From assembly GCA_963422655.1 (NCBI GenBank), contig OY730440.1:2041442-2105441 (forward strand): a stretch of 64,000 nucleotides of DNA. Direction: 5' to 3'. Every line of letters starts with the position of its first letter. The first letter of the stretch is position 1. The translations under genes were made by a program, and so were the position numbers. The DNA is from Acidimicrobiales bacterium. GTDB taxonomy: Bacteria; Actinomycetota; Acidimicrobiia; Acidimicrobiales; Aldehydirespiratoraceae. The notes under the pieces are model-generated. The model was not told the DNA's origin, searched no databases, and saw only the letters and a program-made list of their open reading frames with translations. Below, piece after piece: positions 14,473-62,665 of this stretch.

Positions 14473-14741
14473 TGCACGCCCGACTCACCGTTCTGGCTGC
14501 TGCCTCGGGGGTCTGGTACACTTCAGCAACGTTGCGCCGGTACATTGTTGCTGTAGTGTGACATCGTTGTTAAACTTCCGCAGACTGGTTACAGGCTTCG
14601 TCAGGGGTTGATTTGATGTGATCGAGCCGAAGGTGTGTTACATTGACTAATCGTGTTGGCCTAGGGTCAATTCAGGAAAGGAGGGGCCCCATGCCCCAGC
14701 TAGAGGGGCAAACGCCCCCGGTAGTGAAAAAGGAGGGGTTC

Positions 14742-17066
14742 ATGCCCCAACTCAAAAAGCGGCGTACCAGGAAGCTGAGTTCGCACTTGGCCTTGCTGGG
14801 TGCCGTAGCCATAGTGGCTTCTGTCCTCGCCGTTGGAACCTCACCGGTTACGGCCAAGGAGGGAACCCCCGAGGCGCAAGCCGGGTACTCGGCTTGCGTC
14901 GGTCCGGCTTCGGCTGACGCCGGTTTCGAAGACGTTACCGCCGGTAGCACTCACGACGCCGCCGTCAACTGCATCGCCTACTACGGGATCACCGTGGGTA
15001 AGACGGAAAAGACGTTTGCCCCCAGTGACAATATCACCCGCCGCCAGTTGGCGGTGATGCTGACGCGGGCGGCCGGTCCAGCCGATGTCACTTTGGGTGA
15101 TGGCGAATCCGTAGGTTTCTCCGACATCGAGGAAATACCCGAGGACGTGCAGGAGGCCATCAACCAGATGGCTGGCCTGGGCATCATGAAAGGCACAACG
15201 GGAACGACCTTCGACCCGAGCGGTATCGTGTCCCGGGCCGACATTGTCGAGGCCTTGGCCCGGTTCCTGAGCAATGCCAAGACCGGTCCCGGCGGTTCTT
15301 CCGTCAAGGTGGCTCCCAACGGCAAAGTAACTATCAAGACGGGTAGCGAAGACATAACCATCGACGAGACCTTCCGTGATCTCGGCCCGGTGACTTTTGC
15401 CGCCCATCAAGCCATCTTGGCCATGGCCGAACTGGGTGTGGCCGCGGGTAAAGGTGACGGGGTCTTCGCTCCGGCCGCGAACGTGACCCGGGCCCAAGCT
15501 GCCGCCTTCATAACCCGGACTCTTGATCATACCAACATACGTCCCGCCGGTCTCACTTTACAGGCCTCGAAATCGGCTGCAGAAGCCGGTGATGAGATCA
15601 CTCTGGCTATCTCGGTGCGGGGAGAAGATTTCGCTCCCGTCGACGAAGCTCCCATTGATGTGTTCAAGCATGCCACGGCCAGTACCGATAAGCCTTTCAA
15701 GGCTGATGGCACATGCGATACCAGCGTCGTCACCACTGAGGAATCCAATACTGCCTGCAAGATTGATGTAGACGAAGAGACCACCGAGGATGATGGCAAC
15801 CTCATGATGGACGACGTCGAAGTCAATGGTGATACTATGTTCTACGCTTGGACCGGTAAGTCGAGTTCCTCGCTGGACTGGGACAATGATGCGGTGTCCA
15901 AGGACAACACTGTTGTCTCCGACGCGGCATCGGTCAGTATCACCATCAATGCGACTCCGGACTTGGTTAAGGTTTCCGTCAGTGGCTCGGAGAATTCCGC
16001 CACCGGGGAGAAAACTTTCAAATTGGGAACAACAGATAAAACTGTTGAGTACAACCGCACTGTCAAGTACGGCACTGCGGTGAAGGTTGCGATCCAGCTC
16101 ATGGAGAAGGAGAAACAGGCCAAGATTTCTGGCTATACCTACCAGTGGCGAGTCACAGGATATCAAGCCGCCACTACCACGGTTAAATCGGCTAAGGTAC
16201 TGGTCGGAAAACTGATCGAGACCACTGCGTGGAAGACGATCACCACCGATGACGACGGTATGGCCACATTTGAGCTCCCCTCCACCCCAGATCCGGACAA
16301 GAAGGGGGACGATTTCACGACTTGGACGTACGAAATCGAAGCCACGGGTGCTACTGCCAAGAAGGGTATAACCATTTCGAACAGCACAGGAACAGTAATG
16401 TTCGATGATGACGACCCCGAATCCGAGGACGGTAAGTTGAGACTCAGTTTGAGCCAGCCTTATACCAGAGCGGGTGCCAACTCGAGCGTGAAGCTGACAG
16501 CCACGGTCACCGACCAGTACGGCGGCCCCCTGAAGGACATAGAGGTAAGGTTCTTTTCTAAAGAAGGCGAAAAGGACAAGGAATCTCTGAGCGCAAAGGT
16601 TCTTGACACCAAGTCCAACGGTACCAGGTCACTCACTGCCACCGGTCCTAAGGATGCAGGTACCACTGAATATATGGTGGACGCAGACCTGATTAAAGGC
16701 GAGGAAGCAGCATCTAGTTCGATGACTCACTACTGGGTTGAGGATCCGAAGGTTGATGCTGCTGATGGCGGTGCGGATGCACTACCTGAGGATGCACAGA
16801 AAATTTTGGTTCCGGCTTTCGCTAACAATGAGCTAGTGGTTGGAGAAGGGTCACCGATGGTTTTCAAGTACAGAATCGGTGATCAGTTCAAGTTGGACGG
16901 TAAGTCCCTGTCACTAGCTGCATTCGAAACCGAGTACGGCAAGCATGTGGAAGCTCAGAAGAAGGCGAAAAGTGATTGCCTCGGTGATGTGACGGTGACC
17001 CAGTACAACACCAAGAAGGGTCTGTCCGCCTTTGAGGTAGACACCTCTAAGTGTACTAAGACCTGA
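14742..17066 (+). CDS. S-layer-type surface protein with three N-terminal SLH domains
   Basis: Signal peptide MPQLKKRRTRKLSSHLALLGAVAIVASVLAVGTSPVTA. SLH repeats (FEDVTAGSTHDAAVNCIAYYGITVG..., FSDIEEIPEDVQEAINQMAGLGIMKG..., FRDLGPVTFAAHQAILAMAELGVAAG...). The C-terminal 550 aa are T/D/K-rich and beta-like. An alternative in-frame start at 14691 also has an aaggagg SD. Confidence 0.85.
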   Translation: MPQLKKRRTRKLSSHLALLGAVAIVASVLAVGTSPVTAKEGTPEAQAGYSACVGPASADAGFEDVTAGSTHDAAVNCIAYYGITVGKTEKTFAPSDNITRRQLAVMLTRAAGPADVTLGDGESVGFSDIEEIPEDVQEAINQMAGLGIMKGTTGTTFDPSGIVSRADIVEALARFLSNAKTGPGGSSVKVAPNGKVTIKTGSEDITIDETFRDLGPVTFAAHQAILAMAELGVAAGKGDGVFAPAANVTRAQAAAFITRTLDHTNIRPAGLTLQASKSAAEAGDEITLAISVRGEDFAPVDEAPIDVFKHATASTDKPFKADGTCDTSVVTTEESNTACKIDVDEETTEDDGNLMMDDVEVNGDTMFYAWTGKSSSSLDWDNDAVSKDNTVVSDAASVSITINATPDLVKVSVSGSENSATGEKTFKLGTTDKTVEYNRTVKYGTAVKVAIQLMEKEKQAKISGYTYQWRVTGYQAATTTVKSAKVLVGKLIETTAWKTITTDDDGMATFELPSTPDPDKKGDDFTTWTYEIEATGATAKKGITISNSTGTVMFDDDDPESEDGKLRLSLSQPYTRAGANSSVKLTATVTDQYGGPLKDIEVRFFSKEGEKDKESLSAKVLDTKSNGTRSLTATGPKDAGTTEYMVDADLIKGEEAASSSMTHYWVEDPKVDAADGGADALPEDAQKILVPAFANNELVVGEGSPMVFKYRIGDQFKLDGKSLSLAAFETEYGKHVEAQKKAKSDCLGDVTVTQYNTKKGLSAFEVDTSKCTKT

Positions 17067-49790: not shown

Positions 49791-50750
49791 TCAGGCGCTG
49801 GAGAGGTCGCTCCGAGCAGGAGCAGCGCCGGTCGGGCCCTCTTGGGGGCATACGTAAGGCTCGTAGGAGCCGTCGATTCTGGCCGTCAGGAAGTCTCCGG
49901 CCGTGACCGGCTCGTAACGGCAGGGCCGGGCGGCGGTGACGCAACTCGGGATGGGATCGACCACGGTGCCCGGATCGGGGTTGACGAAGAATGGGACCGA
50001 GAACCGGTCTCGATCTGGTGCTCCCACCACCCGATGCGGGGTTGATCGGTACCGGTCGTTGGTCCAGCGGGCCAACATGTCGCCCAAGTTCACTACCAGG
50101 CTCCCGAGCGGTGCCGAGACCGGCGTCCAGTCGCCGCCCAGGGGCTTTACCTCGAGGCCCGGTACCCCGTCGGTGGCCAGCAGGGTGATGGCGCCGTAGT
50201 CGGTGTGGGGGGTGGACAGAACCGGCAACGATCCGTCGTCGTCCATCGGCGTGACTGGGTAGTGCACGAGCCGGAGCCGGCATTGGGGGTCGGTCATGCG
50301 GGCCGCGAAGAAGCTCGGATCGGCGTCGAGGGCTATGGCCAGAGCCCGCAGGATCGTTGCCGCGGTGGCGAGGGCAGCCCGCTGATAGGCGCGCACCGCT
50401 GGAGCGAACCCGGAGATGTCCGGCCAGGTGATCTCGTCGGCCAGCCCGATGTCGATGTGTTCGAAAATGTTGCTGGCTCGCTCGGGATCCAGTGTTTGCC
50501 CGGTAAGCGGCACGAACCCGTACCGGTTGACCCGGGGTACTTGTTCTTTGCGGTCCTGGGGTAGGGCGAAGAAGGTCCGTGACGCTTCGAACACGGCATC
50601 GAGCCGGTCACCGAGACCGTGTCCGGTGACGCCGAAGAAGCCCGTATCCGTGCAGGCGTCATCGATGCCTTCGATGATCATCGAGGCTTCGGGCCCGGTC
50701 GGTTCGTTGCGCAGTGCGGTGATATCGATGATGGGCAGGGTGATAGTCAC
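49791..50750 (-). CDS. 2-oxoglutarate/Fe(II)-dependent oxygenase (isopenicillin-N-synthase-like)
   Basis: PHTDYGAITLLATD, GLEV, VVNLGDMLARWTNDRYRSTPHRV. Confidence 0.8.
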   Translation of the reverse strand: MTITLPIIDITALRNEPTGPEASMIIEGIDDACTDTGFFGVTGHGLGDRLDAVFEASRTFFALPQDRKEQVPRVNRYGFVPLTGQTLDPERASNIFEHIDIGLADEITWPDISGFAPAVRAYQRAALATAATILRALAIALDADPSFFAARMTDPQCRLRLVHYPVTPMDDDGSLPVLSTPHTDYGAITLLATDGVPGLEVKPLGGDWTPVSAPLGSLVVNLGDMLARWTNDRYRSTPHRVVGAPDRDRFSVPFFVNPDPGTVVDPIPSCVTAARPCRYEPVTAGDFLTARIDGSYEPYVCPQEGPTGAAPARSDLSSA

Positions 50751-52039
50751 GCGCCGGCCTCCGCAATTGCATCGTCATACCCGGTACCGATCCGAGACCG
50801 ACACCTCTCGACCGGTTCTATCCCCACGGTGGTGTGCTGGTTGGTGGAGGCGACGAGTCGGCCTTGGTGGTAGGTGCGGCGGGACATTGCGGCGTCGGCG
50901 ACGGCGGCTCGGACCGATGTGGCGTCGATGGCGGTGAGCTCGGCGGGGTCGCCGGGTTCGAAGTTGACCGGGGCCAGGCCCATGGCTCGGCGGGCGTTGT
51001 TGGAGACCATGTCGTAGGCGGTTTCGGGGGTTTGGTGGGCGGCCATGACCAGCAGGGCGGCGGTTTCCAGCGGGTCGCTGCGACCTACCGGATTGTAGGG
51101 GTCTTGCACGTTGTCGGCTCCGGCTGCTACCAGGGTGCCGGCGTGGCGCAGGGTGTCGATGGCGGTGAGGCCGCGGGGGGTGGCGGTGGGGTGGTGGCGT
51201 CCTTGGAGGTAGAGGTTGGTTTGGGGCAAGGTGATCACTGCGATCTCGGCTTCGGCTACTTCGGCTGCCACGGCGGCTTGGACGTCGGGTGGTTGCATGC
51301 CCAAGCTCACGCAGTGGCTGGCCGCGACCGGGTGAGCGAAACCGGTTTCGTGTACTTGGCGGGCCAGGCTGCGTAACGTCAACACGCCGGGGTCGAGCAT
51401 CTCATCGACATGAAGATCGATGCCCAAACCAGCGTCGGCGGCCGCATCCAAGGCATAGGCGATGAGGCCGGGGCCGTCAGGATCGAGATGAGGGCAGCCG
51501 CCCACCAAATCCACCCCCGCCTCCAGAGCCGCGGCCAGGGCCCGGCGGTTGGCAATGCTGTCAGAGCCGGTCAAGGGAAAGCCGCTCAAAGCCACGATCT
51601 GGACATCCATCAGCCCGGCGAAACGGTCGGCGGCCTCCCGCACTGCGGCTACCGCCACGGTTGTCGGATCTCCCAGGGCGTTGACGTGAGATCTCACCGC
51701 CGTCACCCCGTGCACCAGCAGCAGTTCCAAGGCCTGGCTTGCTCGGTTCACGATGTTCTCGTAGGTGAAGAGACCGGCCGATGCCGCTGCTGACCAGGCT
51801 TCGATGGCGCCGAGCAGGTCGCCGGTGGGGTTACCGACATCGGTGGCGGTGAGTGCCTTGTCGAGATGGGAGTGAGGCTCGGCCAAGGCGGGGAGAAGTA
51901 ACCAGCCCGCCAAGTCGTCGATCTCGGCCCCTTCGGGGGCGGGCGACCCGGCGGCGGCCACTGCGGTGATCAGGCCGTCGTCGGTGTGGACATCAACGGC
52001 TCGGCCGTCGGCCAGCCGGGCGTTGCGTAGCACTCTCAC
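50747..52039 (-). CDS. Amidohydrolase, cytosine-deaminase-like (paralog 1)
   Basis: LPALAEPHSHLDKA (HxH metal site). 430 aa. The stop overlaps the start of the oxygenase gene. Confidence 0.8.
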   Translation of the reverse strand: MRVLRNARLADGRAVDVHTDDGLITAVAAAGSPAPEGAEIDDLAGWLLLPALAEPHSHLDKALTATDVGNPTGDLLGAIEAWSAAASAGLFTYENIVNRASQALELLLVHGVTAVRSHVNALGDPTTVAVAAVREAADRFAGLMDVQIVALSGFPLTGSDSIANRRALAAALEAGVDLVGGCPHLDPDGPGLIAYALDAAADAGLGIDLHVDEMLDPGVLTLRSLARQVHETGFAHPVAASHCVSLGMQPPDVQAAVAAEVAEAEIAVITLPQTNLYLQGRHHPTATPRGLTAIDTLRHAGTLVAAGADNVQDPYNPVGRSDPLETAALLVMAAHQTPETAYDMVSNNARRAMGLAPVNFEPGDPAELTAIDATSVRAAVADAAMSRRTYHQGRLVASTNQHTTVGIEPVERCRSRIGTGYDDAIAEAGA

Positions 52040-52058: not shown

Positions 52059-53288
52059 TCAACCGAGTATCCGGGTGTGCTGGTTGGTGGAGGCGACGAG
52101 TCGGCCTTGGTGGTAGGTGCGGCGGGACATTGCGGCGTCGGCGACGGCGGCTCGGACCGATGTGGCGTCGATGGCGGTGAGCTCGGCGGGGTCGCCGGGT
52201 TCGAAGTTGACCGGGGCCAGGCCCATGGCTCGGCGGGCGTTGTTGGAGACCATGTCGTAGGCGGTTTCGGGGGTTTGGTGGGCGGCCATGACCAGCAGGG
52301 CGGCGGTTTCCAGCGGGTCGCTGCGACCTACCGGATTGTAGGGGTCTTGCACGTTGTCGGCTCCGGCTGCTACCAGGGTGCCGGCGTGGCGCAGGGTGTC
52401 GATGGCGGTGAGGCCGCGGGGGGTGGCGGTGGGGTGGTGGCGTCCTTGGAGGTAGAGGTTGGTTTGGGGCAAGGTGATCACTGCGATCTCGGCTTCGGCT
52501 ACTTCGGCTGCCACGGCGGCTTGGACGTCGGGTGGTTGCATGCCCAAGCTCACGCAGTGGCTGGCCGCGACCGGGTGAGCGAAACCGGTTTCGTGTACTT
52601 GGCGGGCCAGGCTGCGTAACGTCAACACGCCGGGGTCGAGCATCTCATCGACATGAAGATCGATGCCCAAACCAGCGTCGGCGGCCGCATCCAAGGCGAC
52701 GCCGAGGGCGGCGGCGGGATCCGGGTCGAGTTGGGGGCAGCCGCCCACCAAGTCCACCCCCGCCTCCAGAGCCGCGGCCAGAACGGACCGGCTCTCGGCC
52801 CCCTTCGGGCCGCTGATCGATCCCCCGGTCAGGGCCACGATCTGGAGATCGACCAGACCGGCAAACCGGCGGCGCACCTCATGCAAGACCCGTATACCGA
52901 TGACACCGGTCTCGGGCACCGTGTTCACATGGGAGCGGATAGCCGTGGCTCCGTGTCCGACCAGTAACCTCACTGCCGCCGACGCTCTCTCGGCCAGGTT
53001 TTCCTCGCTGAATCGGCCCGCGGTCACCGCTGCTGACCAGGCTTCGATGGCGCCGAGCAGGTCGCCGGTGGGGTTACCGACATCGGTGGCGGTGAGGGCT
53101 TTGTCGAGATGGGCGTGAGGCTCGGCCAAGGCGGGGAGAAGCAACCAGCCCGCTAAGTCGTCGATCTCGGCCCCTTCGGGGGCCGGCGACCCGGCGGCGG
53201 CCACTGCGGTGATCAGGCCGTCGTCGATGTGAACATCAACGGCTCGGCCGTCGGCTAGCCGGGCGTTACCCAGAACTCGCATCGTCAC
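52059..53288 (-). CDS. Amidohydrolase, cytosine-deaminase-like (paralog 2)
   Basis: LPALAEPHAHLDKA. The 3' 624 nt are identical to paralog 1. Confidence 0.8.
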   Translation of the reverse strand: MTMRVLGNARLADGRAVDVHIDDGLITAVAAAGSPAPEGAEIDDLAGWLLLPALAEPHAHLDKALTATDVGNPTGDLLGAIEAWSAAVTAGRFSEENLAERASAAVRLLVGHGATAIRSHVNTVPETGVIGIRVLHEVRRRFAGLVDLQIVALTGGSISGPKGAESRSVLAAALEAGVDLVGGCPQLDPDPAAALGVALDAAADAGLGIDLHVDEMLDPGVLTLRSLARQVHETGFAHPVAASHCVSLGMQPPDVQAAVAAEVAEAEIAVITLPQTNLYLQGRHHPTATPRGLTAIDTLRHAGTLVAAGADNVQDPYNPVGRSDPLETAALLVMAAHQTPETAYDMVSNNARRAMGLAPVNFEPGDPAELTAIDATSVRAAVADAAMSRRTYHQGRLVASTNQHTRILG

Positions 53289-53362: not shown

Positions 53363-53459
53363 CAAGGGCTGGTTCTCGATGCTTGATTCAGATGGCGACC
53401 GGTTCGGGTAAGACTTTCACAGCCACCAACGTCTCGTACCGGCTCCTTCGCCACGTCGG
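53363..53459 (+). pseudogene. 97-nt relic of a type I restriction hsdR gene (helicase motif I region)
   Basis: Encodes LIQMATGSGKTFTATNVSYRLLRHVGARRILF. It matches 60386-60482 of the intact hsdR with 7 mismatches in 97 nt (my count). No homology on either side. Confidence 0.75.
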
Positions 53460-53901
53460 TGCACGCAGGATTCTGTTTCGTCTATTACGGTCTTTTGAGT
53501 TGCTTCTCCCCCGGGCAACCCGCACCCCGCTCGGAGTGCGGGACCAGGTTGTGGCGGGCCATAGCAAAGATTGTCGCGGCGTGCCAGCAAAACAGATCCG
53601 CAGGGTCCCGCGGGTTGAAGAGCAAGTCCCGGGCCAGCGCCGCTCGGGCATCGCCGGTGAGGCGATCGACTGTCCAACCAGCGACCGGAACCAGTTGCCT
53701 TCCACCGAGGACACCGCCTCCACCGGCCCGGCGACTGCTTCGCCGCCGGACGCGATTACTGGTTGCGCGCGACATCCGGGCGGGGCGTGCAACCAGGCCG
53801 TGCGGCGCCAGTTGTCCGCAGCTTCGCCAAGTCGAGGGTGGTGGATCAGACCGTGTGTTTCCATCAACGGACCGTGTGCTCCCATCAAATCGTTCGGGTG
53901 G

Positions 53902-53929
53902 TTGATTCTCGCCGGCAGGTTGCTATATT
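53902..53929 (+). promoter_or_regulatory. Candidate sigma-70-type promoter of the island operon
   Basis: TTGATT-N16-TATATT, about 60 nt upstream of ATG 53990, at the point where the sequence becomes AT-rich. Confidence 0.35.
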
Positions 53930-53989: not shown

Positions 53990-54256
53990 ATGATGCAGGT
54001 CAGAGAAGCGGTGGAATCAGCAGCAGCAGCGGTTCTGTGCGTCAGTGTGGAGGACCTTCGACTCAACGATGCAAAGGGTGGGTTACGGTTCGATTCGCCC
54101 CAGGCCGAAGCAATCGTGGCCCGCGTCGAGGGGTTGCTCGGCACGGGTCCCCTGGCTGAGGTCAAAGATCTGCAAACCAGTGAGCCAGCGACGCTTGAGA
54201 CGTTGACGGAACTGCTCGAAACCAAGCGCACTGGTAGCGAGGCGATGACGACATGA
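53990..54256 (+). CDS. Acyl/peptidyl carrier protein-like small protein
   Basis: 88 aa. The layout parallels ACP: VREAVESAAAAVLCVSVEDLRLNDAKGGLRFDSPQAEAIVARVEGLLG. The DS motif at the start of helix 2 would be the phosphopantetheine serine. Confidence 0.55.
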   Translation: MMQVREAVESAAAAVLCVSVEDLRLNDAKGGLRFDSPQAEAIVARVEGLLGTGPLAEVKDLQTSEPATLETLTELLETKRTGSEAMTT

Positions 54257-55038
54257 TGTCGATCGTTGCGGATAGCGCCCTAGAGGCGTGGGCGGCCGCC
54301 GTTTGGGAGATCTCCCGAAAATCTGACCGAGAGGTTGTTCATTCGATTGTTTCGTTCCCCTGCGATACGACTCTTGGCCCCGAACACGAGCAGGTGAGCC
54401 AGATGTTGACGGATGCTGGTGCGTGGGATGTCAAACAGGTTGCGGACACGATCTTTCCGCAGTCTCTGTATCGCCCCGAGGCCGAGGAACCAGCTAAGGC
54501 ACTTTTCGAGAACTGGAACTATGCGCGGCAAGTCAACAGACGCCGCAAAGGCCAGTCCATCACCTACTTCGACAGGCTGACTCACTACCCGAATAGCACT
54601 GGCGATTTCAACCAGCTCCAATGCCAGTTGGAGAAGCTTCGTTCAGAGCTTGCGGCAAGAGGCCCTTATCGAGCGATCTACGAGTTGGGGCTGACCGGTG
54701 AGGCTGAACTGCGTCTCATGATCCCAGGAGTGGACCGACCTCGACGCAGTTTCCCGTGTCTGAGCCACGTGAGCCTGACATTACGTAAGAAAACACTTCA
54801 TCTGATGGCCCAGTACCGATATCAGTACATGATACGCAAGGCGCTGGGTAACTATCTTGGCCTCAGTCGACTGCTCGCGTTCTTTGTGAATGAGCTCGGA
54901 TTGACCGCGGGCAGGGTCAGCGTCACTGCTGCGTATGCACGAATCGACGCGAAAAAGTTGGGTGGCATCAAGAGATGGAGAACGTTCGCTGAAAGTCTGA
55001 AGACTATGGAGCCAACAGCCTTGGAGCAACAGAAATGA
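54253..55038 (+). CDS. Thymidylate synthase / pyrimidine hydroxymethylase-fold protein (divergent)
   Basis: [66 protein letters not shown] parallels ThyA [80 protein letters not shown] parallels DRTGTGTLSIFG. 4-nt overlaps with both neighbours. Confidence 0.45.
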   Translation: [261 protein letters not shown]

Positions 55039-55484
55039 ACAGACCTGAGCATCTTGAGCGATGGCTGGGGTCTGCATTGCAAGCCCTTACCACCGATTTC
55101 GATGACGTGATCCCTGGAATCGATGTGGTCAGTGTCCCGGACTTCGAGCATCTGATCAGAATTGGAGGTCAGCAATTCCTGACGCGCCAGTTCACCAGTG
55201 CCGAGCTGTCCGAATGTGGTAGCAACGGTGAGCGCCTAGCCGCTCGTTTCGCAGCGAAGGAAGCCACGGTGAAGGTGCTGAGGACCGGATTTCGCAGAGG
55301 TATTGCAGCTCGCCATATCGAAATCAAAACGAACAAATCCGGAATGCCGCACGTGATGCTGCACGGACCCGCGGCTGAAAGAGCCGAACAGATGTCGCTG
55401 AGGTTAGTAAATGTGACACTGACTCACGATGCAGATCTGGCTGCAGCAGCGGCGATTGGACGGCGCGAAAATGAGACCGTGTGA
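55035..55484 (+). CDS. AcpS-type 4'-phosphopantetheinyl transferase
   Basis: GIDVVSVPDFEHL, FTSAELSEC, ERLAARFAAKEATVKVL, IEIKTNKSGMPHV, VTLTHDADLAAAAAI. All AcpS motifs appear in the expected order. Confidence 0.8.
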   Translation: MNRPEHLERWLGSALQALTTDFDDVIPGIDVVSVPDFEHLIRIGGQQFLTRQFTSAELSECGSNGERLAARFAAKEATVKVLRTGFRRGIAARHIEIKTNKSGMPHVMLHGPAAERAEQMSLRLVNVTLTHDADLAAAAAIGRRENETV

Positions 55485-55505: not shown

Positions 55506-55880
55506 ATGACCGAGAAGACCATGCCAGAAGTCGGCACAGAACAAGCCGCGATTGGTGAGCGGTTAAAGGAAGCGCGCACCTATCTCGGATTGACCCAGGA
55601 ACTAGTGGCCGAGGAGTTGTCGATTCCCCGGCCAGCGGTATCCCAGATCGAGCGTGGAGGAAGACGCGTGTCAGGCATAGAACTCAAGAAGCTGGCAACT
55701 CTCTATGGTCGGCCCGTGGGTTGGTTCTTCGGTGATATAGAGGGGACGGTTGGGGATACCGGAGAGCAGACCGACGCGCTGTTCCGCGCTATGAACGATC
55801 TTGATGAATCTGATGTGGAAGAGGTTGTGCGGTTCGCCGAGTTCCTGCGTAGTCGCGCCGAGACGTCACCATGGCAGTGA
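55506..55880 (+). CDS. XRE-family helix-turn-helix transcriptional regulator
   Basis: IGERLKEARTYLGLTQELVAEELSIPRPAVSQIERGGRRVSGIELKKLATLYG. aaggag SD. Confidence 0.85.
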   Translation: MTEKTMPEVGTEQAAIGERLKEARTYLGLTQELVAEELSIPRPAVSQIERGGRRVSGIELKKLATLYGRPVGWFFGDIEGTVGDTGEQTDALFRAMNDLDESDVEEVVRFAEFLRSRAETSPWQ

Positions 55881-57007
55881 GCCAGAATCGGCGCCACCTT
55901 GCCGAGGCTAATCGTCAAGGTCGTCTCGAGGCTGAGCGTCTCCGCAACCGGTTGGGGCTCAACACCCAGACCTGGATCGATGTTTTTGAAATCATCGAAT
56001 CGCAGCCCAATCTGGAATTACTCTTTCGCCCTCTCAAAAAACTGTACGGCTTTTACTTGCAACGCCAAGGGTCGTCGGGGATTGTGATCAATGCTGATCA
56101 CCCATCAGCCTTGAGGAGGTTTACCGCGGCGCACGAACTCGGTCACCACGTTCTGAGCCATGGAGAATCAGTCGATCTGAGCCATGGAGAATCAGTCGAT
56201 CTGAGCCATGGAGAATCAGTCGATGAGAATGGACACATAAATACCCCTCTCGGGATCGATGACGAGGGGGTCGACGGCATAGTCAGTGCTCGTTCAATCC
56301 AGAACGCAGGAAACCTCGTCAAAGAAGCCGCTGCCCAGGGGTTCGCTGGCTCGTTCTTGATGCCGTTGGCGCCGGTGAACCGGTATCTACGCGATCACAC
56401 CGGATCCACACGAGGAGGCATACTCCCCGCCGATCAGGTCTATAAGTTGGCTGTGGAGTTCGGGGCGAGCTTTGGCGCGACATGCACACAACTGGCTGCG
56501 CTGAATAAGATCGACTGGGAATACCGCGCCCAGTTACTTCAAGCCGGTGCTCTCAAAGTTGCAACTGATATCGGTTACGGAACTTCGCCCCGCCACCGCC
56601 GAGCTGATGTGGTGGTGGGTGATCACTTGCACGGCGCTCAAGTGATGGAACATGACGCAGAATTGGTCGTAGAGATTGTCGAAACACCAACGACGGGGTG
56701 TGTTTGGACGCTCGACGAAATTCCGAGGCAGCTTGAAGTCATCGCCGACAGCGTAGTCGCGGATGAACATGACGGGGAGCGGCTGGGTGGGAGCCAGACC
56801 CGCCATATACGTTTTGGCGTTGTCAAGCCTGGCGATGCAGTGGTGCGATTCGGATTGAGGGCGGCGTGGCAACCGGAATCCGAACCTCTGCAATCGCGCG
56901 TCGTGGAGGTCTCGGTACGTGAGCCTGTGTTCAATTCTGGCTGTTCATTGAGTCGTAGGACGCTTCGCCGGAGAGTGGCGATGGTCCATGCGATGTCGGT
57001 GATGTGA
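55871..57007 (+). CDS. ImmA/IrrE-family zinc metallopeptidase fused to a C-terminal chagasin-like (I42) cysteine-peptidase inhibitor domain
   Basis: HExxH site FTAAHELGHHVL. The C-terminal 110 aa parallel chagasin: ETPTTGCVW (NPTTGFAW), RLGGSQTRHIRFGVVKPGDAVVRFGLRAAW (LLGAGGTEHFHVTVKAAGTHAVNLTYMRPW). 10-nt overlap with the XRE gene. Confidence 0.7.
   Translation: MAVSQNRRHLAEANRQGRLEAERLRNRLGLNTQTWIDVFEIIESQPNLELLFRPLKKLYGFYLQRQGSSGIVINADHPSALRRFTAAHELGHHVLSHGESVDLSHGESVDLSHGESVDENGHINTPLGIDDEGVDGIVSARSIQNAGNLVKEAAAQGFAGSFLMPLAPVNRYLRDHTGSTRGGILPADQVYKLAVEFGASFGATCTQLAALNKIDWEYRAQLLQAGALKVATDIGYGTSPRHRRADVVVGDHLHGAQVMEHDAELVVEIVETPTTGCVWTLDEIPRQLEVIADSVVADEHDGERLGGSQTRHIRFGVVKPGDAVVRFGLRAAWQPESEPLQSRVVEVSVREPVFNSGCSLSRRTLRRRVAMVHAMSVM
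56153..56224 (+). repeat. Perfect 3 x 24-nt in-frame tandem repeat (ctgagccatggagaatcagtcgat) encoding LSHGESVD x3
   Basis: Read directly. It starts 2 codons after the HELGH motif. Confidence 0.95.
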
Positions 57008-57681
57008 CCGAACGAGTGTTGAATTTAGCACGGTCACTGCCGCCGGTACGTTCGCAGGGCCAGCGTGGTACATGCGTGGCGTTTGTTCTCACGTGTGGAC
57101 ATGAACGGGCGCTTTACCAGGGACCGAACGGCGAGCCTCTCAGCGAACAAGCACTGCATTGGGCCACGAAACAAATCGACCAACAGCCAGGTGACGCAAC
57201 AACTCTCTCTTGCGGAGCCCAGGCCTTGGCTTCGTCTGGACAACCACTCTCGTCGGTTTGGCCCTACGAGCCCAGCATTGATCCGGGACCTCCTCCTCCA
57301 GACTGTTTCGACACCGTCTGGTCCGCGGAAGCTGAGCCTGTCGGCGAGACTGGAGTGGCAGCACTTCGCGATATGTTGAGCAACTCACTTATCGTCTGCA
57401 CCGGGATCCCACTTTGGCCGGAGTTCACGGCAGCGACAGGTACTGCTTCAGCGATCATCCCCGTCACTCCTTTCGCTCAGACACAGAAGCCATCTCATGC
57501 GATAGCGCTTGTGGGTCACGATCCGATGCGAGGGGCCGTACTGGTTCGCAATTCGTGGGGTGAGAGTTGGGGCACTAACGGCTATTGTTGGGTAGAGGAC
57601 CAGCTCGTTGCCTGCTGCACATTGATGTGGGCGGTGATACAGGTCGTTCAAAGCCATGAGAAGCGATATGGATCTGAGTGA
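57004..57681 (+). CDS. Papain-family (C1) cysteine peptidase, no signal peptide
   Basis: VRSQGQRGTCVAFV (Gln/Cys), PSHAIALVGHD (His), VLVRNSWGESWGTNGYCWV (Asn/Trp). The GTG start overlaps the upstream stop (GTGA). Confidence 0.8.
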   Translation: MTERVLNLARSLPPVRSQGQRGTCVAFVLTCGHERALYQGPNGEPLSEQALHWATKQIDQQPGDATTLSCGAQALASSGQPLSSVWPYEPSIDPGPPPPDCFDTVWSAEAEPVGETGVAALRDMLSNSLIVCTGIPLWPEFTAATGTASAIIPVTPFAQTQKPSHAIALVGHDPMRGAVLVRNSWGESWGTNGYCWVEDQLVACCTLMWAVIQVVQSHEKRYGSE

Positions 57682-58618
57682 ATATCAACTGAAAGCGCAA
57701 GCCACCGACCAGCGGCTCCCCATGCCTGATGGTAATGAAGAGCCTCTTGATGACGACCACATTGTAGTTCCGTTGCTCGGACTGGTGGGTGAGGTGGGTG
57801 CGCTGCATACCGAGTACAAGAAGCTGCTGCGTGACGGAAGTGCCTACAGCGGCTTCGAACGCCACCTCGACGAAGAACTCGGTGATATCTTGTGGTATGT
57901 CGCTAACCTGGCATCAAAGTTCGGCCGCGATCTAAATGCCATCGCTAAAGAGAATCTTGCCAAAGTTCGCGATCGATTCCCCTCTGAAGATGCAGTTGAT
58001 AACTTTCAGTTTCCTGATCAAGACTTTCCACGCGAGCAGCAACTTCCACGTGAATTTGAGGTGTTCTTTCACACCGAAAGGCCATCAATTGATGGGCAGC
58101 CTCCGAAGGTTCAGTGTTACTGGAACGATGCCAAGTTCGGGAACGAGCTCGACGATAACGCCGTTGATGATAACGGGTACCGTTATCATGACGCATTCCA
58201 TCTCGCCTACGTTGTCTATCTCGGATGGTCACCAGTACTGCGGAAGTGGTTCGCCAGAAAACGCGACGAAACAACTCACCGTATTAGAGATGGTGGCCGG
58301 GCCAAGGTATACGAAGAAGCCATCGCAGTGCTTGTCTACAGCCACGCGTCCGAAGTGGGGTGGTTTGCTAAACCAAACCAGGAAGTTGACTTCTCCGTCC
58401 TGAAACTCATAAAGCAACTGACAGATGGTCTCGAGGAACTCAGGAATGTGACGTTGCACCGTTGGGCGGAGGCGATCAAAGCCGGATTTGCAGTCTGGAA
58501 TCAGCTCCGTGCGAATACCGGTGGTGTAGTGGTTGGAGATGCCACAGTGCCGAAGCTTGAGTATCGGCCATTGCCGTCTGACTGGCATCCGCCCTTGAAT
58601 GCCCATTTCGAGCCGTAG
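57656..58618 (+). CDS. MazG-like all-alpha NTP pyrophosphohydrolase with a 200-aa C-terminal extension of unknown function
   Basis: LLGLVGEVGALHTEYKKLLRDG ... DEELGDILWYVANLASKFGRDLNAIAKENLAKVRDRF (EExxE/D metal motifs). Overlaps the peptidase gene. An alternative start is ATG 57668. Confidence 0.65.
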   Translation: MRSDMDLSEYQLKAQATDQRLPMPDGNEEPLDDDHIVVPLLGLVGEVGALHTEYKKLLRDGSAYSGFERHLDEELGDILWYVANLASKFGRDLNAIAKENLAKVRDRFPSEDAVDNFQFPDQDFPREQQLPREFEVFFHTERPSIDGQPPKVQCYWNDAKFGNELDDNAVDDNGYRYHDAFHLAYVVYLGWSPVLRKWFARKRDETTHRIRDGGRAKVYEEAIAVLVYSHASEVGWFAKPNQEVDFSVLKLIKQLTDGLEELRNVTLHRWAEAIKAGFAVWNQLRANTGGVVVGDATVPKLEYRPLPSDWHPPLNAHFEP

Positions 58619-59690
58619 AGGGCAGAGGATCGACGGTCCACAACCTGAGGGTATCCGACTGACACACCGTGGGTTCGTTCGCAGTCATTGGTAGATTCCA
58701 TTTGGGTGGGTAGCCCAACACGAGAGGCTCAGACTTTGGTACGAAGGATTGCTTGATACGGCGTGGACCGCCAGTGTCAATTTCGGGATGTGCAACTCGC
58801 GCGTATTTGTCCACCTCACAGAACAGGTTCTGGATATCGATCAGGTGCAGTTGCCGGCCCCACAGGTCCTTGAAGTTTTTATCAGCTAGATACGGGGATG
58901 CCTCGTCTGCCATCGCAGCGATGAGATCGTGGGGATCAAGGCTACCGGTATCAGTGAAGCATTTCTGGATACCGCGTAGCGCACCTGGGCCAGCAACGAC
59001 GAAGTCCATTTCGTCGAAATCGAAGTGGGGGCTGTAGTTGAGATCGATAGCATATTGAAACGCCAGAAACGGACCGAAGGATGGAATGCAGGTCAGTTGC
59101 TCGTAGAGATCTTTGAGGGTCCTGGCCTGCGTTAGTTGCCGTAGAGTGCCTTCTCGTACGAGATGTGCGAGAAGCGCAAGATGGTTCCGGTGCTTTCGGT
59201 TCTCGCCCATGGTCGGCGAAGGCATGATGTATGCGGCTGAGTAAATACGATTGCCAGCCTTGAGGCGCCGGTCGAGGGCTCTGCTGTACCATCCTGGATC
59301 AAAAGTTGCGAGAGTCGGCTGGCCGACCGTTTCAACCAGGTAGTTCCAAGTTTCGATACGGTTGAATATCTTGAACAACAGAACTCGAAAGACCGTGTCG
59401 TCAGCGTCACGCTCATCGTCGTAGATGACGTGTTGCAGGAGGTATTGACTCACTCGATCAGAAGCACGGTACGCGTTCGTAAACCGATAGTTCGCAAGTA
59501 CGGGGTCGTTGGTCCATGGCCTTGGAAGGCCAGACACACGCCGGTTGAACATTGCTTGGCGTTCGGCAGCCAGATACCAGTAGCTCCAGAACACCTCGGT
59601 TACGGCCACCTGACGGTCCCGCAGACGGATCCGTGGAGGACGGTCCGATTGGCTCAGACGAGGCATGGCACCGGGATGATCTTGGCACAA
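58476..59690 (-). CDS. Protein resembling the phage thymidine-hypermodification family (5-hmdU DNA kinase helical / aGPT-pyrophosphorylase-like, often annotated as nucleotide kinase domain-containing protein)
   Basis: N-terminal pattern FWSYWYLAAERQAMFNRRVSGLPRPWTNDPVLANYRFTNAYRASDRVSQYLL, recalled from that family. Not verified by search. The 3' 143 nt overlap the convergent MazG-like gene. Confidence 0.45.
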   Translation of the reverse strand: MCQDHPGAMPRLSQSDRPPRIRLRDRQVAVTEVFWSYWYLAAERQAMFNRRVSGLPRPWTNDPVLANYRFTNAYRASDRVSQYLLQHVIYDDERDADDTVFRVLLFKIFNRIETWNYLVETVGQPTLATFDPGWYSRALDRRLKAGNRIYSAAYIMPSPTMGENRKHRNHLALLAHLVREGTLRQLTQARTLKDLYEQLTCIPSFGPFLAFQYAIDLNYSPHFDFDEMDFVVAGPGALRGIQKCFTDTGSLDPHDLIAAMADEASPYLADKNFKDLWGRQLHLIDIQNLFCEVDKYARVAHPEIDTGGPRRIKQSFVPKSEPLVLGYPPKWNLPMTANEPTVCQSDTLRLWTVDPLPSTARNGHSRADASQTAMADTQASALWHLQPLHHRYSHGADSRLQIRL

Positions 59691-59785: not shown

Positions 59786-62665
59786 ATGGCCATGGCTGAT
59801 GAGCCTTCGGACTATCTCGCTCCCGAGCAGCATGCGCGCATGAAGATCGACGCCCAACTCAAGGCGTGCGGATGGGTGGTGCAGGACTACCGGCATGGCG
59901 CTGTGAGTGCCGCGCCCGGTGTCGCCGTGCGTGAGGTGCCCACTGGGGCTGGCCCCGCCGATTACGTGCTGTTCGTGGACGCCCAGGCGGTGGGGGTGAT
60001 CGAAGCCAAGAAGCGGGGCACGACGCTCACCGGCGTGGAACGCCAGACGCACAGATACCGGGCAGCCTTTCCCGATGAGCTGCCAGCTTTTTTCGTTGAG
60101 GGGGCTCTGCCCTTCGGCTACGAATCAACCGGCACCGAGACCCGGTTCACCTGCGGGCTCGATCCGGAGCCGACGTCACGGCGAGTGTTCACGTTTCATC
60201 GACCCAAAACGCTCGCCCGCTGGCACGATGATCACATCCGTCTAGGCGGCCACGCCACCTCCAGGACCAGCTTCCGGGCCGGGCTGGGTCTTCTGCCCGA
60301 TCTGGATCCGGCTGGGCTCTGGGCAGCCCAAGCCGAAGCCATCCGGAATCTCGAGCGGTCGTTGAAAGCGAACCGGGCCCGGGCTTTGATCCAAATGGCG
60401 ACCGGCTCGGGTAAGACTTTCACAGTCGCCAACATCTCGTACCGGCTCCTTCGCCACGCCGGTGCACGCAGGATTCTGTTTCTGGTGGACCGGGCCAACC
60501 TGGCCACACAAACGATCCGTGAGCTCGAGGGTTTCGCCACCCCCGACGACGGCCGTAAGTTCACCGAGCTCTACAACGCCCGCCAGCTCACCTCCTCGGG
60601 GCTCGACATGGTTGACGAGGCAGCCACCAAAGTGCATGTGGCGACCATTCAGCGGATCTACTCGATCTTGCGGGGCGAGGACCTTAGCGACGATCTCGAC
60701 GAACGGTCGGCTTTCGACATGGCCCCCGAACGCCCCGTGGAAGTGCTCTACAACCCGGCTGTACCCATCGAGAGCTACGACGTGATCATCATCGACGAAT
60801 GCCACCGGTCGATCTATGGGGTATGGCGCCAGGTGCTGGAGTATTTTGACGCCTTCCTCATCGGGCTTACGGCCACGCCGGGCAAGCAGACATTCGGTTT
60901 CTTCGACCAGAACCTGGTGATGGAGTACGGCCACGAACAGGCCGTTGCCGACCGGGTGAACGTCGACTTCGATGTGTTTCGCATTCGTACCGAGATCTCC
61001 GAGTCCGGCAGCACCGTTGATGCCGGGTTGGTCACCGAGTTCCGTGACCGGGAGACCCGCAAGCAGCGCTTCGAACGTATCGACACCGACTTGGACTACG
61101 AGGCCTCCGACCTCGACCGTAAGGTGGTGGCTCCCGATCAGATCCGCACAATCGTTAGCGCTTTGCGCGACTCGCTGCCGAAAATGTTTCCGGATCGCAT
61201 CGTGGGAGACAACGGGCGGCTCGAACACATACCCAAGACGTTGATATACGCCAAAGACGACAGCCATGCCGACGACATCGTGCAGATCGTCCGTGAAGAG
61301 TTCGGCCTGTCGAGTTTGGGTGCGGTGAAGATCACCTACAAGACGTTCGAGTCCGGTCACAAACCCGAGGAGCTGCTTCAACAGTTCCGAACCGGCTACG
61401 AGACTCGGGTCGCGGTCACGGTTGACATGATCGCCACCGGCACCGATGTGCGGCCCATTGAGTGTGTCGTGTTCATGCGGATGGTGCGCAGCCGCACCTT
61501 CTTTGAGCAGATGAAGGGTCGTGGAGTGCGAGTGATGAGCTCCGAAGACCTGCGCGGTGTCACTCCTGACGCCACCGCCAAAGACCATTTCGTGATCGTT
61601 GATGCGGTCGGCGTTACCGAAACCATGCTGGCCGACACAGTTCCGCTGGAGCGCTGCCATAGCGTCGGGTTCGACCGGCTTCTCAACCAGATCGGCCTCG
61701 GCAGTACCGACGAAGATGTCGTCTCATCGGTGGCGTCCCGGCTGGCCCGACTCGACAAGCGCATCACCGGACCGGACCGAGCCGAGCTCGAAGAAGTGGC
61801 AGGCATCAGTCTCGGTGAGCTGTCTCACCAACTCGTCGATGCCCTTGACCCTGATCGGCATCACGCCGAGGCTATAAAGGTCTGTGGCACTGATATGCCT
61901 ACTGGCGCCGAAGTCGCGGCGGCCCGTAAACGACTAGTGAAAGCAGCGCTGGCGCCCATCGCGGGTAACTCTGCGTGTCGTGAGAAGCTGGTCGAGATTC
62001 GTCGTAGCTACGAACAGGTCATCGACGCCGCCTCCAAGGACCGGGTCATATCAGGCCGATTCTCCAGGGACGCCACCGACCGGGCCCGCGGCATCGTCGA
62101 TTCCTTCCGCCAGTACATAGAAGACAACAAGGACGAGATCACCGCTCTTCAGGTTCTCTACAGCCAGCCCTATAGCGGTGGGCTCAGCTTCGCTGACATC
62201 CGGGAGTTGGCGAACTCGATCAAACGGTCACCTCGCAACTGGACCACCGAGGACCTCTGGGAGGCTTACGAGACTCTTGACGCCAGCAAGGTTCGGGGGT
62301 CGGGTCATCGAGTCAACACCGATCTCGTCAGCCTGGTTCGTTACGCGTTGGGCAGCGCTGATGAGCTTGTCTCTTACCCTGATCTCGTAGACGAGCGCTT
62401 TGACGCGTGGCTGTTGCAGCAGACCCAATCCCCCCCCCCCCCCCCCCCCCCCGGAAGCGAAAGACTCGGGGGAGGGCTTTCCAGTGAACAGATTGACTAT
62501 CTCCGCCTAGTCAAGGATCACATCGCCGCAAGTCTCGGGATCGAGGCTCGCGATTTACAGAACCTGCCGTTCAGTCAGCACGGTGGACTAGGCCGAGCCC
62601 GCCAGCTCTTCGGCCGCGGTCTTGAACAATTACTAGACGAGCTCACTCAGGCGCTGGCCGCATGA
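59786..62665 (+). CDS. hsdR: Type I restriction enzyme R subunit
   Basis: N-terminal PD-(D/E)xK nuclease ADYVLF...VIEAKK. Helicase motifs IQMATGSGKT, IIIDECHRS, LTATP, TVDMIATGTDV. C-terminal EcoEI_R_C-like domain after the poly-Pro. Start taken at ATG 59786; the ORF is open from 59552. Confidence 0.9.
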   Translation: MAMADEPSDYLAPEQHARMKIDAQLKACGWVVQDYRHGAVSAAPGVAVREVPTGAGPADYVLFVDAQAVGVIEAKKRGTTLTGVERQTHRYRAAFPDELPAFFVEGALPFGYESTGTETRFTCGLDPEPTSRRVFTFHRPKTLARWHDDHIRLGGHATSRTSFRAGLGLLPDLDPAGLWAAQAEAIRNLERSLKANRARALIQMATGSGKTFTVANISYRLLRHAGARRILFLVDRANLATQTIRELEGFATPDDGRKFTELYNARQLTSSGLDMVDEAATKVHVATIQRIYSILRGEDLSDDLDERSAFDMAPERPVEVLYNPAVPIESYDVIIIDECHRSIYGVWRQVLEYFDAFLIGLTATPGKQTFGFFDQNLVMEYGHEQAVADRVNVDFDVFRIRTEISESGSTVDAGLVTEFRDRETRKQRFERIDTDLDYEASDLDRKVVAPDQIRTIVSALRDSLPKMFPDRIVGDNGRLEHIPKTLIYAKDDSHADDIVQIVREEFGLSSLGAVKITYKTFESGHKPEELLQQFRTGYETRVAVTVDMIATGTDVRPIECVVFMRMVRSRTFFEQMKGRGVRVMSSEDLRGVTPDATAKDHFVIVDAVGVTETMLADTVPLERCHSVGFDRLLNQIGLGSTDEDVVSSVASRLARLDKRITGPDRAELEEVAGISLGELSHQLVDALDPDRHHAEAIKVCGTDMPTGAEVAAARKRLVKAALAPIAGNSACREKLVEIRRSYEQVIDAASKDRVISGRFSRDATDRARGIVDSFRQYIEDNKDEITALQVLYSQPYSGGLSFADIRELANSIKRSPRNWTTEDLWEAYETLDASKVRGSGHRVNTDLVSLVRYALGSADELVSYPDLVDERFDAWLLQQTQSPPPPPPPGSERLGGGLSSEQIDYLRLVKDHIAASLGIEARDLQNLPFSQHGGLGRARQLFGRGLEQLLDELTQALAA
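62430..62452 (+). repeat. 23-nt poly-C homopolymer inside hsdR (encodes S-P7)
   Basis: Counted directly: c at 62430 plus cccccccccc cccccccccc cc. Confidence 0.95.

Follow-up and report, generated by a model that had tools for sequence, protein, structure and literature searches.

An ImmA/IrrE-type metalloprotease fused to a chagasin-fold domain, its papain-family neighbour and the probably mobile nucleotide-centred gene cassette around them

The window analysed here is a 64,000-nucleotide (nt) stretch from an Acidimicrobiales bacterium (GenBank assembly GCA_963422655.1, contig OY730440.1, positions 2,041,442 to 2,105,441, forward strand). Three consecutive genes in this window encode (i) an XRE-type helix-turn-helix repressor, (ii) an ImmA/IrrE-type zinc metalloprotease whose C-terminal part is a chagasin-type inhibitor domain of MEROPS family I42 (hereafter ImmA::I42) and (iii) a papain-family (C1) cysteine peptidase. 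A preliminary description, made from the letters and open reading frames (ORFs) of the window, had interpreted this trio as an apparent caged-protease module with toxin–antitoxin or abortive-infection logic. The three genes, the HELGH motif and the three inhibitor loops all lie where that description had placed them. The features of the trio, all on the plus strand, are as follows.

55506..55880, +, XRE/CapH-like helix-turn-helix repressor, 124 amino acids (aa) (HTH_3, E 3.4e-13; PADLOC capH, E 5e-10, with nearly the whole profile covered)
55871..57007, +, ImmA/IrrE-type Zn metalloprotease fused to a chagasin/inhibitor of cysteine peptidases (ICP; I42) domain, 378 aa (Pfam, PADLOC, PDB profile, AlphaFold)
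56132..56146, +, HELGH zinc-binding/catalytic motif, residues 88–92 of the M78 domain (sequence, homologue alignment)
56152..56224, +, perfect tandem repeat of 24 nt × 3, SHGESVDL three times (TRF, 3.0 copies, 100% match)
56609..56917, +, chagasin/ICP-fold domain, residues ~247–349, with loops L2 ETPTTGCVW, L4 LGGS and L6 RAAW (Pfam, PDB profile, AlphaFold, Foldseek)
57004..57681, +, cytoplasmic papain-family (C1) cysteine peptidase without a pro-domain, 225 aa (Pfam Peptidase_C1, E 1.5e-8; AlphaFold, Foldseek)

Domains were assigned with Pfam, PADLOC, NCBIfam, a PDB profile search and hhalign, and the AlphaFold (AF2) models of ImmA::I42 and C1 were compared with known structures by Foldseek. 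Unless stated otherwise, counts of loci refer to 84 loci anchored on ImmA, whose ORFs were searched iteratively.

The protease part of ImmA::I42 resembles the known ImmA/IrrE peptidases in sequence, gene context and predicted fold. Pfam places Peptidase_M78 on residues 56–99 (E 1.3e-11), PADLOC matches the protein with capP (E 2e-15), and the protease side of a family profile built from 27 ImmA::I42 members matches IrrE (1e-7) and CapP (7e-7) among PDB sequences. The HEXXH motif and a downstream glutamate (Glu152) are invariant in all 84 ImmA::I42 homologues. In the AlphaFold model (predicted local distance difference test (pLDDT) 85.9, predicted template modelling score (pTM) 0.84), confidence is low only at residues 107–145 (<50), and the N-terminal part, about two thirds of the protein, superposes on IrrE/PprI. 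The XRE stop codon overlaps the ImmA start by 10 nt in the window, and an XRE gene lies directly upstream of ImmA in 83/84 loci. A few XRE–ImmA–I42 triple fusions (e.g. P0148) also occur among the profile matches.

Three lines of comparison agree on the C-terminal domain, whose three loops the preliminary description had named. Pfam Inhibitor_I42 matches residues 263–343 (E 5.1e-11) with 82 of 91 profile positions covered; the inhibitor side of the 27-member profile matches EhICP2 (2.7e-14), the Pseudomonas aeruginosa ICP (1.4e-13) and chagasin (5e-7); and the domain is modelled as an Ig-like beta-sandwich with pLDDT >90 over residues 247–349, for which Foldseek returns EhICP2 (TM score 0.78) and chagasin, protease complexes included (TM score 0.72–0.78). 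The loop motifs TPTTGCVW, RLGGSQ and RAAW occupy residues 272–279, 303–308 and 330–333, respectively, and a conserved tail follows the domain at the C-terminus. Among the 75 loci that also carry C1, Glu271, Gly276 and Trp279 of L2, Gly306 of L4 and Arg311 are kept in 73–75, and an aromatic residue is present in L6 in 72. This conservation indicates that the inhibitory loops are under selection.

The fusion is neither rare nor particular to the source genome. A large profile search over 1.84 billion representatives yielded 624 protein clusters (at 50% identity) that match the ImmA::I42 profile at E<=1e-30; the best 150 of these 624 were listed, and nearly all of them are 320–350 aa long and match the profile from end to end. 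A first relative search had found 74 clusters, most of which have both Pfam domains precomputed, and a scan of GTDB, with one genome per species, gave 261 relatives confirmed by tblastn, of which the best 80 were examined. The fusion is thus spread over at least nine bacterial phyla and one haloarchaeal (Haloarcula) plasmid; its bacterial hosts belong to the Actinomycetota, Alpha- and Betaproteobacteria, Planctomycetota, Acidobacteriota, Chloroflexota, Gemmatimonadota, Nitrospirota, Bacillota and Bacteroidota. We also considered whether the fusion might be an artefact of assembly, frameshift or annotation, or a match of motifs by chance; only the recent 24-nt triplication inside the gene speaks for this. 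Hundreds of independent full-length two-domain homologues rule this out, and the confident AF2 model and significant profile E-values also stand against it, so that its probability is negligible.

The downstream gene encodes a papain-fold peptidase, as had been proposed. Its AF2 model (pLDDT 93.1) matches cathepsin L (TM score 0.79–0.82) and papain (0.77) in Foldseek, and phmmer against PDB sequences likewise recovers cathepsin K and papain. The catalytic set Gln18/Cys24/His165/Asn183 is present in the window protein and kept in 72–74 of 75 homologues. Since Cys24 aligns with Cys25 of mature papain, the protein starts at the mature domain, and neither a signal peptide nor an I29 propeptide would fit in front of it; in this it differs from typical secreted or lysosomal C1A zymogens. 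The 75 homologous ORFs are mostly 206–264 aa long, some of them too long because the first in-frame start was used, and longer C1 homologues (330–390 aa) from unrelated CHAT/SIR2/STAND contexts were left out of the set. Together, these features support a C1 peptidase that would be catalytically intact and cytoplasmic.

Gene order and translational coupling link this peptidase to ImmA::I42. In the window, C1 starts with a GTG (57004) that shares a 4-nt overlap with the ImmA stop (ATGTGA). C1 lies directly downstream of ImmA::I42 in 75/84 loci; the same 4-nt overlap is possible in 46 of these 75, and a start lies within −10 to +20 nt in 70. The nine loci without C1 fall into several kinds. L004 is a deletion pseudogene, and in L031, L035 and L054 the I42 match spans only 30–40 residues, probably because of contig ends or ORF disruption. 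L063 has neither C1 nor recognizable L2, L4 and L6 loops. In L016, L020 and L032, which are Acidimicrobiia from sponges, the L6 tryptophan is lost while the I42 domain persists, and C1 gives way to two genes, one MazG-like (~197 aa) and one dCTP-deaminase-like, the latter with a hydrophobic tail at its C-terminus. L010 lacks C1, yet it retains the loops. In brief, loci with C1 preserve the loops and loci without it have mostly lost this conservation, although informative losses are few. We regard ImmA::I42 and C1 as very likely a cognate inhibitor–protease pair, as judged from comparative sequence data, because the loops are selected, C1 appears intact and cytoplasmic, the two genes are adjacent and coupled, and the loops are mostly degraded, wholly or in part, at loci that lack C1. 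No natural I42–C1 fusion turned up in these searches; the closest oddity, P0218, is a decayed chimera of ImmA, a partial I42 domain, a thymidylate-synthase-like (TS-like) protein and MazG.

We then compared the trio with the regulatory and inhibitory systems that it most resembles. CapP and IrrE consist of a peptidase, a helical domain and a GAF domain, and single-stranded DNA (ssDNA) bound in the groove between peptidase and GAF opens the active site, after which the repressor is cleaved (10.1101/2022.04.27.489752; PMC13228613). Like CapH/CapP as well as DdrO/IrrE and ImmR/ImmA, in which an XRE repressor and an M78 metalloprotease turn on operons for defence or of mobile elements following DNA damage, the window has adjacent XRE and M78 genes, a HEXXH motif with a downstream glutamate and an IrrE-like N-terminal fold; the likeness to CapH/CapP extends to PADLOC, in which capH and capP are best or near-best matches, and to defence-type neighbourhoods. 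Unlike in CapP and IrrE, a chagasin domain occupies the place of the GAF domain, which in those proteins shapes the groove for ssDNA and makes contact with the substrate. When the C-terminal domain was tested as a possible GAF domain, Pfam, the PDB profile and Foldseek all assigned it to the chagasin fold and not to GAF. At the level of sequence and modelled fold, the chagasin domain stands in place of the C-terminal GAF sensor domain of IrrE and CapP. In contrast to CapH/CapP, the xre and immA genes lie within the operon in the same direction, not divergently upstream, and the pair has an obligatory partner in C1, a second protease.

The ICPs known so far stand on their own as proteins of about 110–130 aa. 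The window domain shares with chagasin, EhICP2 and the P. aeruginosa ICP the Ig-like fold, the three loops and a C1 peptidase encoded alongside, but it forms the C-terminus of a metalloprotease of the signal-responsive kind, and its predicted target is a cytoplasmic, pro-domain-less C1 peptidase in a conflict-type operon. Its L6 loop reads R-A-A-W where chagasin, like most of the family, has RPW.

A second peculiarity of the window protein lies next to its active site. The 24-nt triplication adds 16 in-frame residues to the loop right after HELGH, a part that AF2 models with low confidence, and the near-invariant His97 lies within the repeated unit. This insertion is missing from all 26 aligned homologues and is particular to the source genome; a sister genome (L004) has one copy of the unit. 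Its site corresponds to the CapP loop that carries an autoinhibitory 'cysteine switch' (10.1101/2022.04.27.489752; PMC13228613).

The C-termini of the proteins show a further pattern. Endings in -AA (…RLLAA, …RLMAA, …RLIAA) occur in 44–50% of the ImmA::I42 family (P0001–P0258; L001–L083), against a composition expectation of about 1%, although the last codon is constrained by the stop/start overlaps. The same endings are enriched in C1 (25%) and in the TS-like protein (22%), and occur in 0–4% of XRE, MazG, HMUDK and phosphopantetheinyl transferase (PPTase) proteins; the window's own proteins end without them. These tails resemble the ssrA/ClpXP degron and would be in keeping with an inhibitor that is labile.

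The trio is embedded in a larger set of genes in the window, which includes the following features.

53849–53888, +, two 21-nt direct repeats, GACCGTGTGyTyCCATCAAyG (repeat search)
53902–53929, +, sigma-70-like promoter match (consensus match; the only one in the region, against 2.5 in shuffled sequence)
53990..54256, +, gene for a small carrier-like protein, 88 aa, Ser36 invariant (family alignment A3; best PDB matches are acyl or peptidyl carrier proteins (ACP/PCP), weak, E 0.04–0.16)
54253..55038, +, divergent thymidylate-synthase-fold enzyme 'U261', 261 aa, with a conserved Cys169 (hhalign, NCBIfam)
55035..55484, +, AcpS-type 4'-phosphopantetheinyl transferase, 149 aa (Pfam ACPS, E 2.3e-12; NCBIfam holo-ACP synthase, E 1e-24)
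57656..58618, +, MazG nucleotide pyrophosphohydrolase fused to MazG_C, 320 aa (MazG_C, E 6.8e-52; MazG, E 3e-5)
58476..59690, −, stand-alone HMUDK_hel protein, i.e. the helical domain of the 5-hydroxymethyldeoxyuridine (5-hmdU) DNA kinase (NCBI 'nucleotide kinase domain-containing'; HMUDK_hel, E 3e-102)

The seven same-strand genes between 53990 and 58618, the trio among them, have overlapping or nearly abutting stops and starts and look like one operon. The direct repeats and the promoter match lie ~60 nt upstream of the first cassette gene, which is suggestive of 53849..53929 as a candidate promoter/operator region and candidate XRE operator. MazG (plus strand) and HMUDK_hel (minus strand) are convergent, with a 143-nt overlap of their 3' ends (58476–58618). 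The called 5' ends of HMUDK_hel (TTG, 59690) and hsdR (TTG, 59552) also overlap, and both genes were probably called too long.

Assignment of the smaller cassette proteins relies on family comparisons. The 88-aa protein is a probable carrier with Ser36 as the phosphopantetheine attachment site; its proteobacterial counterpart (family A2) matches ACPs at E 3.6e-5 and has an invariant Asp-Ser, whereas a profile comparison of the two carrier families did not establish homology between them (probability 17%). The 261-aa TS-like protein has no Pfam match. Against cassette-linked Thymidylat_synt proteins, it reaches an hhalign probability of 96.6% (E 7e-10) with the nucleophilic cysteine aligned, and it matches the NCBIfam thymidylate synthase TIGR03283 at E 4.5e-9, which is below the cut-off.

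Across the homologous loci, the trio is embedded in such a cassette, of 7–9 genes, in 78/84 cases. The TS-like gene is the most frequent companion (78/84), followed by MazG/MazG_C (54/84), HMUDK_hel (47/84), the AcpS-type PPTase (39/84) and the carrier protein (21/84 by one family search and 42/84 by the other). Variants include uracil-DNA glycosylase (UDG)-like genes in 20 loci, dCTP-deaminase (DCD)-like genes in 15, Sfp-type PPTases in eight and canonical thymidylate synthases in seven, and the Haloarcula locus also holds a dTMP kinase. In the actinobacterial layout, the trio sits in mid-operon with stop/start overlaps on both sides. Reverse anchoring on the TS-like gene in metagenomes used a narrow alphaproteobacterial alignment (A6), so the sample is biased to one proteobacterial subtype; within it, ImmA::I42 and C1 occupy their canonical places in essentially all of the ~50 loci with enough upstream sequence. 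The order in these loci is rigid: ACP–XRE–ImmA::I42–C1–TS-like, then UDG and MazG on the opposite strand.

Natural gene fusions join several of these enzymes, namely the TS-like protein and PPTase (L015, L016, L020, L032 and L036), HMUDK_hel and the carrier protein (L016 and L032), and HMUDK_hel and MazG (L026, L033, L040, L048 and L056, from Planctomycetota and Gemmatimonadota), which argues for physical or metabolic coupling of the cassette enzymes. A Metallophos protein of ~720 aa turns up repeatedly next to the cassette in distant hosts (L003 1921–4071; L085 2585–4753; the contig of P0007), and Burkholderia-type loci repeatedly contain an unannotated protein of ~420 aa; these two may be additional cassette components.

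The cassette shares part of its content with described or predicted systems. DS-4 ('NTTI'), an Escherichia coli anti-phage system validated experimentally, comprises a thymidylate synthase, a dNMP/adenylate kinase, HMUDK_hel, TIR and Nmad2 (PMC13092281). The window HMUDK_hel protein is 25% identical to DS-4 protein 3 (WP_087900470.1) over its full length (E 6e-31), and both systems have a TS-fold enzyme, divergent in the window, and a nucleotide-centred logic. However, Pfam, PADLOC and NCBIfam find no TIR, Nmad2 or P-loop dNMP kinase among the window cassette proteins, and DS-4 in turn is without the XRE/ImmA::I42/C1 trio, the carrier/PPTase pair and MazG/MazG_C. MazG and MazG-C are listed as predicted, not validated, defence domains (PMC13092281).

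The combination of MazG and MazG_C, HMUDK-type and TS-type domains and UDG variants also recalls predicted nucleotide-modifying conflict systems, whose defensive role had, according to PMC13092281, been predicted and never validated. Burroughs et al. (2015, NAR) reportedly predicted such systems with MazG, MazG-C and aGPT-Pplase. By contrast with phage thymidine hypermodification, which involves a P-loop 5-hmdU DNA kinase and aGPT-Pplase, the window has the helical domain only, and the cassette is essentially absent from phages.

Base composition, flanking repeats and neighbouring genes characterize the cassette as an island. Its GC content is 56%, compared with ~67% in the host genome, and the drop spans 54–60 kb. 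It lies directly upstream of hsdR and hsdS of a type I restriction–modification (R-M) system, and the following repeat pair brackets the 7.0-kb cassette plus the 5' part of hsdR.

53383..53479 (left) and 60386–60482 (right, inside the intact hsdR), no strand assigned, 97-nt direct repeat, an hsdR fragment (93% identity, spacing 7003 nt)

The repeat and the GC shift suggest an insertion or recombination at hsdR. Two tandem amidohydrolase-family paralogues (50747–52039 and 52059–53288, minus strand) lie just left of the island; they are near-identical over ~70 N-terminal and ~200 C-terminal residues and look like a recent tandem duplication.

Homologous loci adjoin Kiwa KwaA, Fic, integrases, TIR/ThsB, Tn7-like genes, a type IIG methylase with type IV secretion system genes, type I methylases and a restriction endonuclease. 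Eleven PLSDB plasmids, eight of them conjugative, carry an ImmA::I42 relative, and both plasmid regions inspected (Haloarcula and Mycobacterium) hold the cassette; in the Mycobacterium plasmid (L087 8253–10133) an IS630 element is inserted in the C1 gene. A search of 50,697 phage records gave no match, and among 2.9 million viral contigs the cassette is present on only one. L001 and L002 have an intact trio but fragmented MazG and HMUDK genes. These patterns suggest that the cassette is probably a mobile, horizontally spread conflict or defence element of islands, integrative conjugative elements (ICEs) and plasmids.

On these grounds, we consider it somewhat more probable than its opposite that the trio is the control unit of a mobile nucleotide/DNA-base cassette of 7–9 genes, which would probably act as an inducible anti-phage or conflict system. 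As in the homologous pairs ImmR/ImmA, DdrO/IrrE and CapH/CapP, XRE would repress the operon, and the ImmA-type Zn protease would cleave XRE on a stress or infection signal. The GAF sensor of IrrE and CapP is replaced by the chagasin-type domain, whose L2, L4 and L6 loops are strongly predicted to enter the active-site cleft of the co-translated, pro-domain-less C1, so that the two proteases would form a 1:1 complex with C1 held inactive. A changed state of ImmA, or loss of ImmA::I42, would then free C1; this is the weakest step. The freed C1 would provide a second, post-translational licensing by processing cassette enzymes or other targets, and dangerous nucleotide chemistry (TS-like, MazG/MazG_C, HMUDK_hel, carrier + PPTase, and UDG/DCD variants) would thereby be limited to infection.

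A bolder version of this control-unit model is possible but rather doubtful. It holds that the two proteases form a mutual lock, in which the chagasin-swapped sensor protease both cages and 'reads' C1, and that release licenses lethal carrier-dependent nucleotide/DNA-base chemistry, e.g. a modified pyrimidine that is incorporated and then excised by a glycosylase of the cassette.

Several observations weigh against the control-unit model. Co-translation at 1:1 offers no obvious route to free C1, and cutting the tether alone would not free C1 from a tight-binding chagasin domain; the proposal in the preliminary description that ImmA activates C1 by removing the inhibitor is therefore not evident, the two proteins being made at ~1:1. 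The xre and immA genes lie inside the operon and in the same direction, whereas those of CapH/CapP are divergent and upstream. Four full-length loci (L010, L016, L020 and L032) have the I42 domain without a neighbouring C1, and the window ImmA itself has a 16-residue insertion adjoining its active site. In the sister Acidimicrobiales genome, the locus (L004 10001–10600) consists of pseudogenes with a deletion from immA to HMUDK, and L001 is partly decayed, with MazG and HMUDK in fragments. PADLOC run on the window gave matches for XRE, ImmA and HsdR alone and left C1, the TS-like protein, MazG, HMUDK, PPTase and ACP unmatched; for the first four of these six it contains no model. There are also two stand-alone trios, and only two: L019, which lies between type I hsdM and hsdR, and L050. 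They suggest that the trio can persist without the nucleotide enzymes. Because the trio is embedded in the cassette at nearly all loci, the effectors are no less likely to be the nucleotide enzymes than C1.

The stand-alone trios speak for the idea of the preliminary description that two or three genes form an autonomous toxin–antitoxin or abortive-infection (Abi) module, in which C1 would be the toxin, ImmA::I42 a labile or signal-destroyed antitoxin and the nucleotide enzymes separate or mere cargo. The intact trios of L001 and L002 beside fragmented MazG and HMUDK agree with this, a pro-domain-less C1 needs an inhibitor in trans, and the degron-like -AA ends on 44–50% of ImmA::I42 proteins would suit an unstable antitoxin. 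However, such ends also occur on C1 and the TS-like protein and on none of the window proteins, the trio takes a mid-operon place with overlaps on both sides in the actinobacterial layout, and the TS-like gene accompanies it in 78/84 loci, with a fixed order in ~50/50 informative TS-anchored loci. We consider an autonomous module unlikely. The part of the caged-protease idea that stands is the pairing of I42 with C1; its self-containment gives way to the larger cassette, with L019 and L050 as exceptions.

Just as unlikely, in our estimate, is that the I42 domain serves as a receiver or docking domain, such that C1, or its occupancy, switches ImmA in place of ssDNA and the signal flows from C1 to ImmA to XRE. 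The position of I42 agrees with this, since the GAF domain of CapP forms the activator groove and contacts the helix-turn-helix domain of the substrate; the pTM of 0.84 suggests a fixed M78–I42 arrangement, and the ImmA catalytic residues are invariant. But the conserved C1 tetrad implies that C1 must cleave something, and a pure ligand would not need it. A receiver role and caging of C1 are not mutually exclusive. Slightly less probable again is a biosynthetic or self-modification pathway, in which C1 would be a papain-fold amidase, thioesterase or acyltransferase that acts on carrier-tethered intermediates and I42 would merely restrain it. A carrier protein and a dedicated PPTase are indeed core components, TS-like, MazG and HMUDK_hel recall phage thymidine hypermodification, and the cassette often adjoins R-M systems. 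Yet XRE/ImmA switches typically control mobile elements and defence, the spread over islands, ICEs and plasmids is patchy and accompanied by frequent decay, phages, the home of hypermodification pathways, essentially lack the cassette, an HMUDK_hel system has been validated in defence, and chagasin loops are specific for the cleft of C1 peptidases.

If the control-unit model holds, the locus would represent a new way of gating an immune or conflict system, with an inhibitor domain wired into a damage- or infection-sensing protease and a transcriptional and a post-translational lock combined in one protein. If the two proteases indeed form a mutual lock, this would be the first I42 inhibitor domain used as a signalling element in prokaryotic immunity and also the first case of an ACP/PPTase pair at work in an immune system. 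In either case, the analysis flags a widespread, uncharacterized cassette (carrier, PPTase, TS-like, MazG/MazG_C and HMUDK_hel), for which DS-4 is the only related domain set validated in defence. Its parts are small and soluble and should suit testing.

The preliminary description had been unaware of any account of the fused architecture, and we found nothing relevant in the literature searched. M78–I42 proteins are already visible as an architecture in domain databases; a description of the fusion or of the cassette was not found in the searchable literature, which did not cover the earlier comparative-genomics surveys that are likeliest to mention the cassette. Within the literature searched, the combination of a CapH/CapP-type switch, a chagasin–C1 pair and a nucleotide-centred defence cassette is not described.

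The window contains a second patch of low GC content (52–58% GC, 15–17 kb), in which 14643–17066 codes for a protein of the S-layer/cell-surface type (807 aa) that has SLH and Big_1 domains and is unrelated to the cassette.

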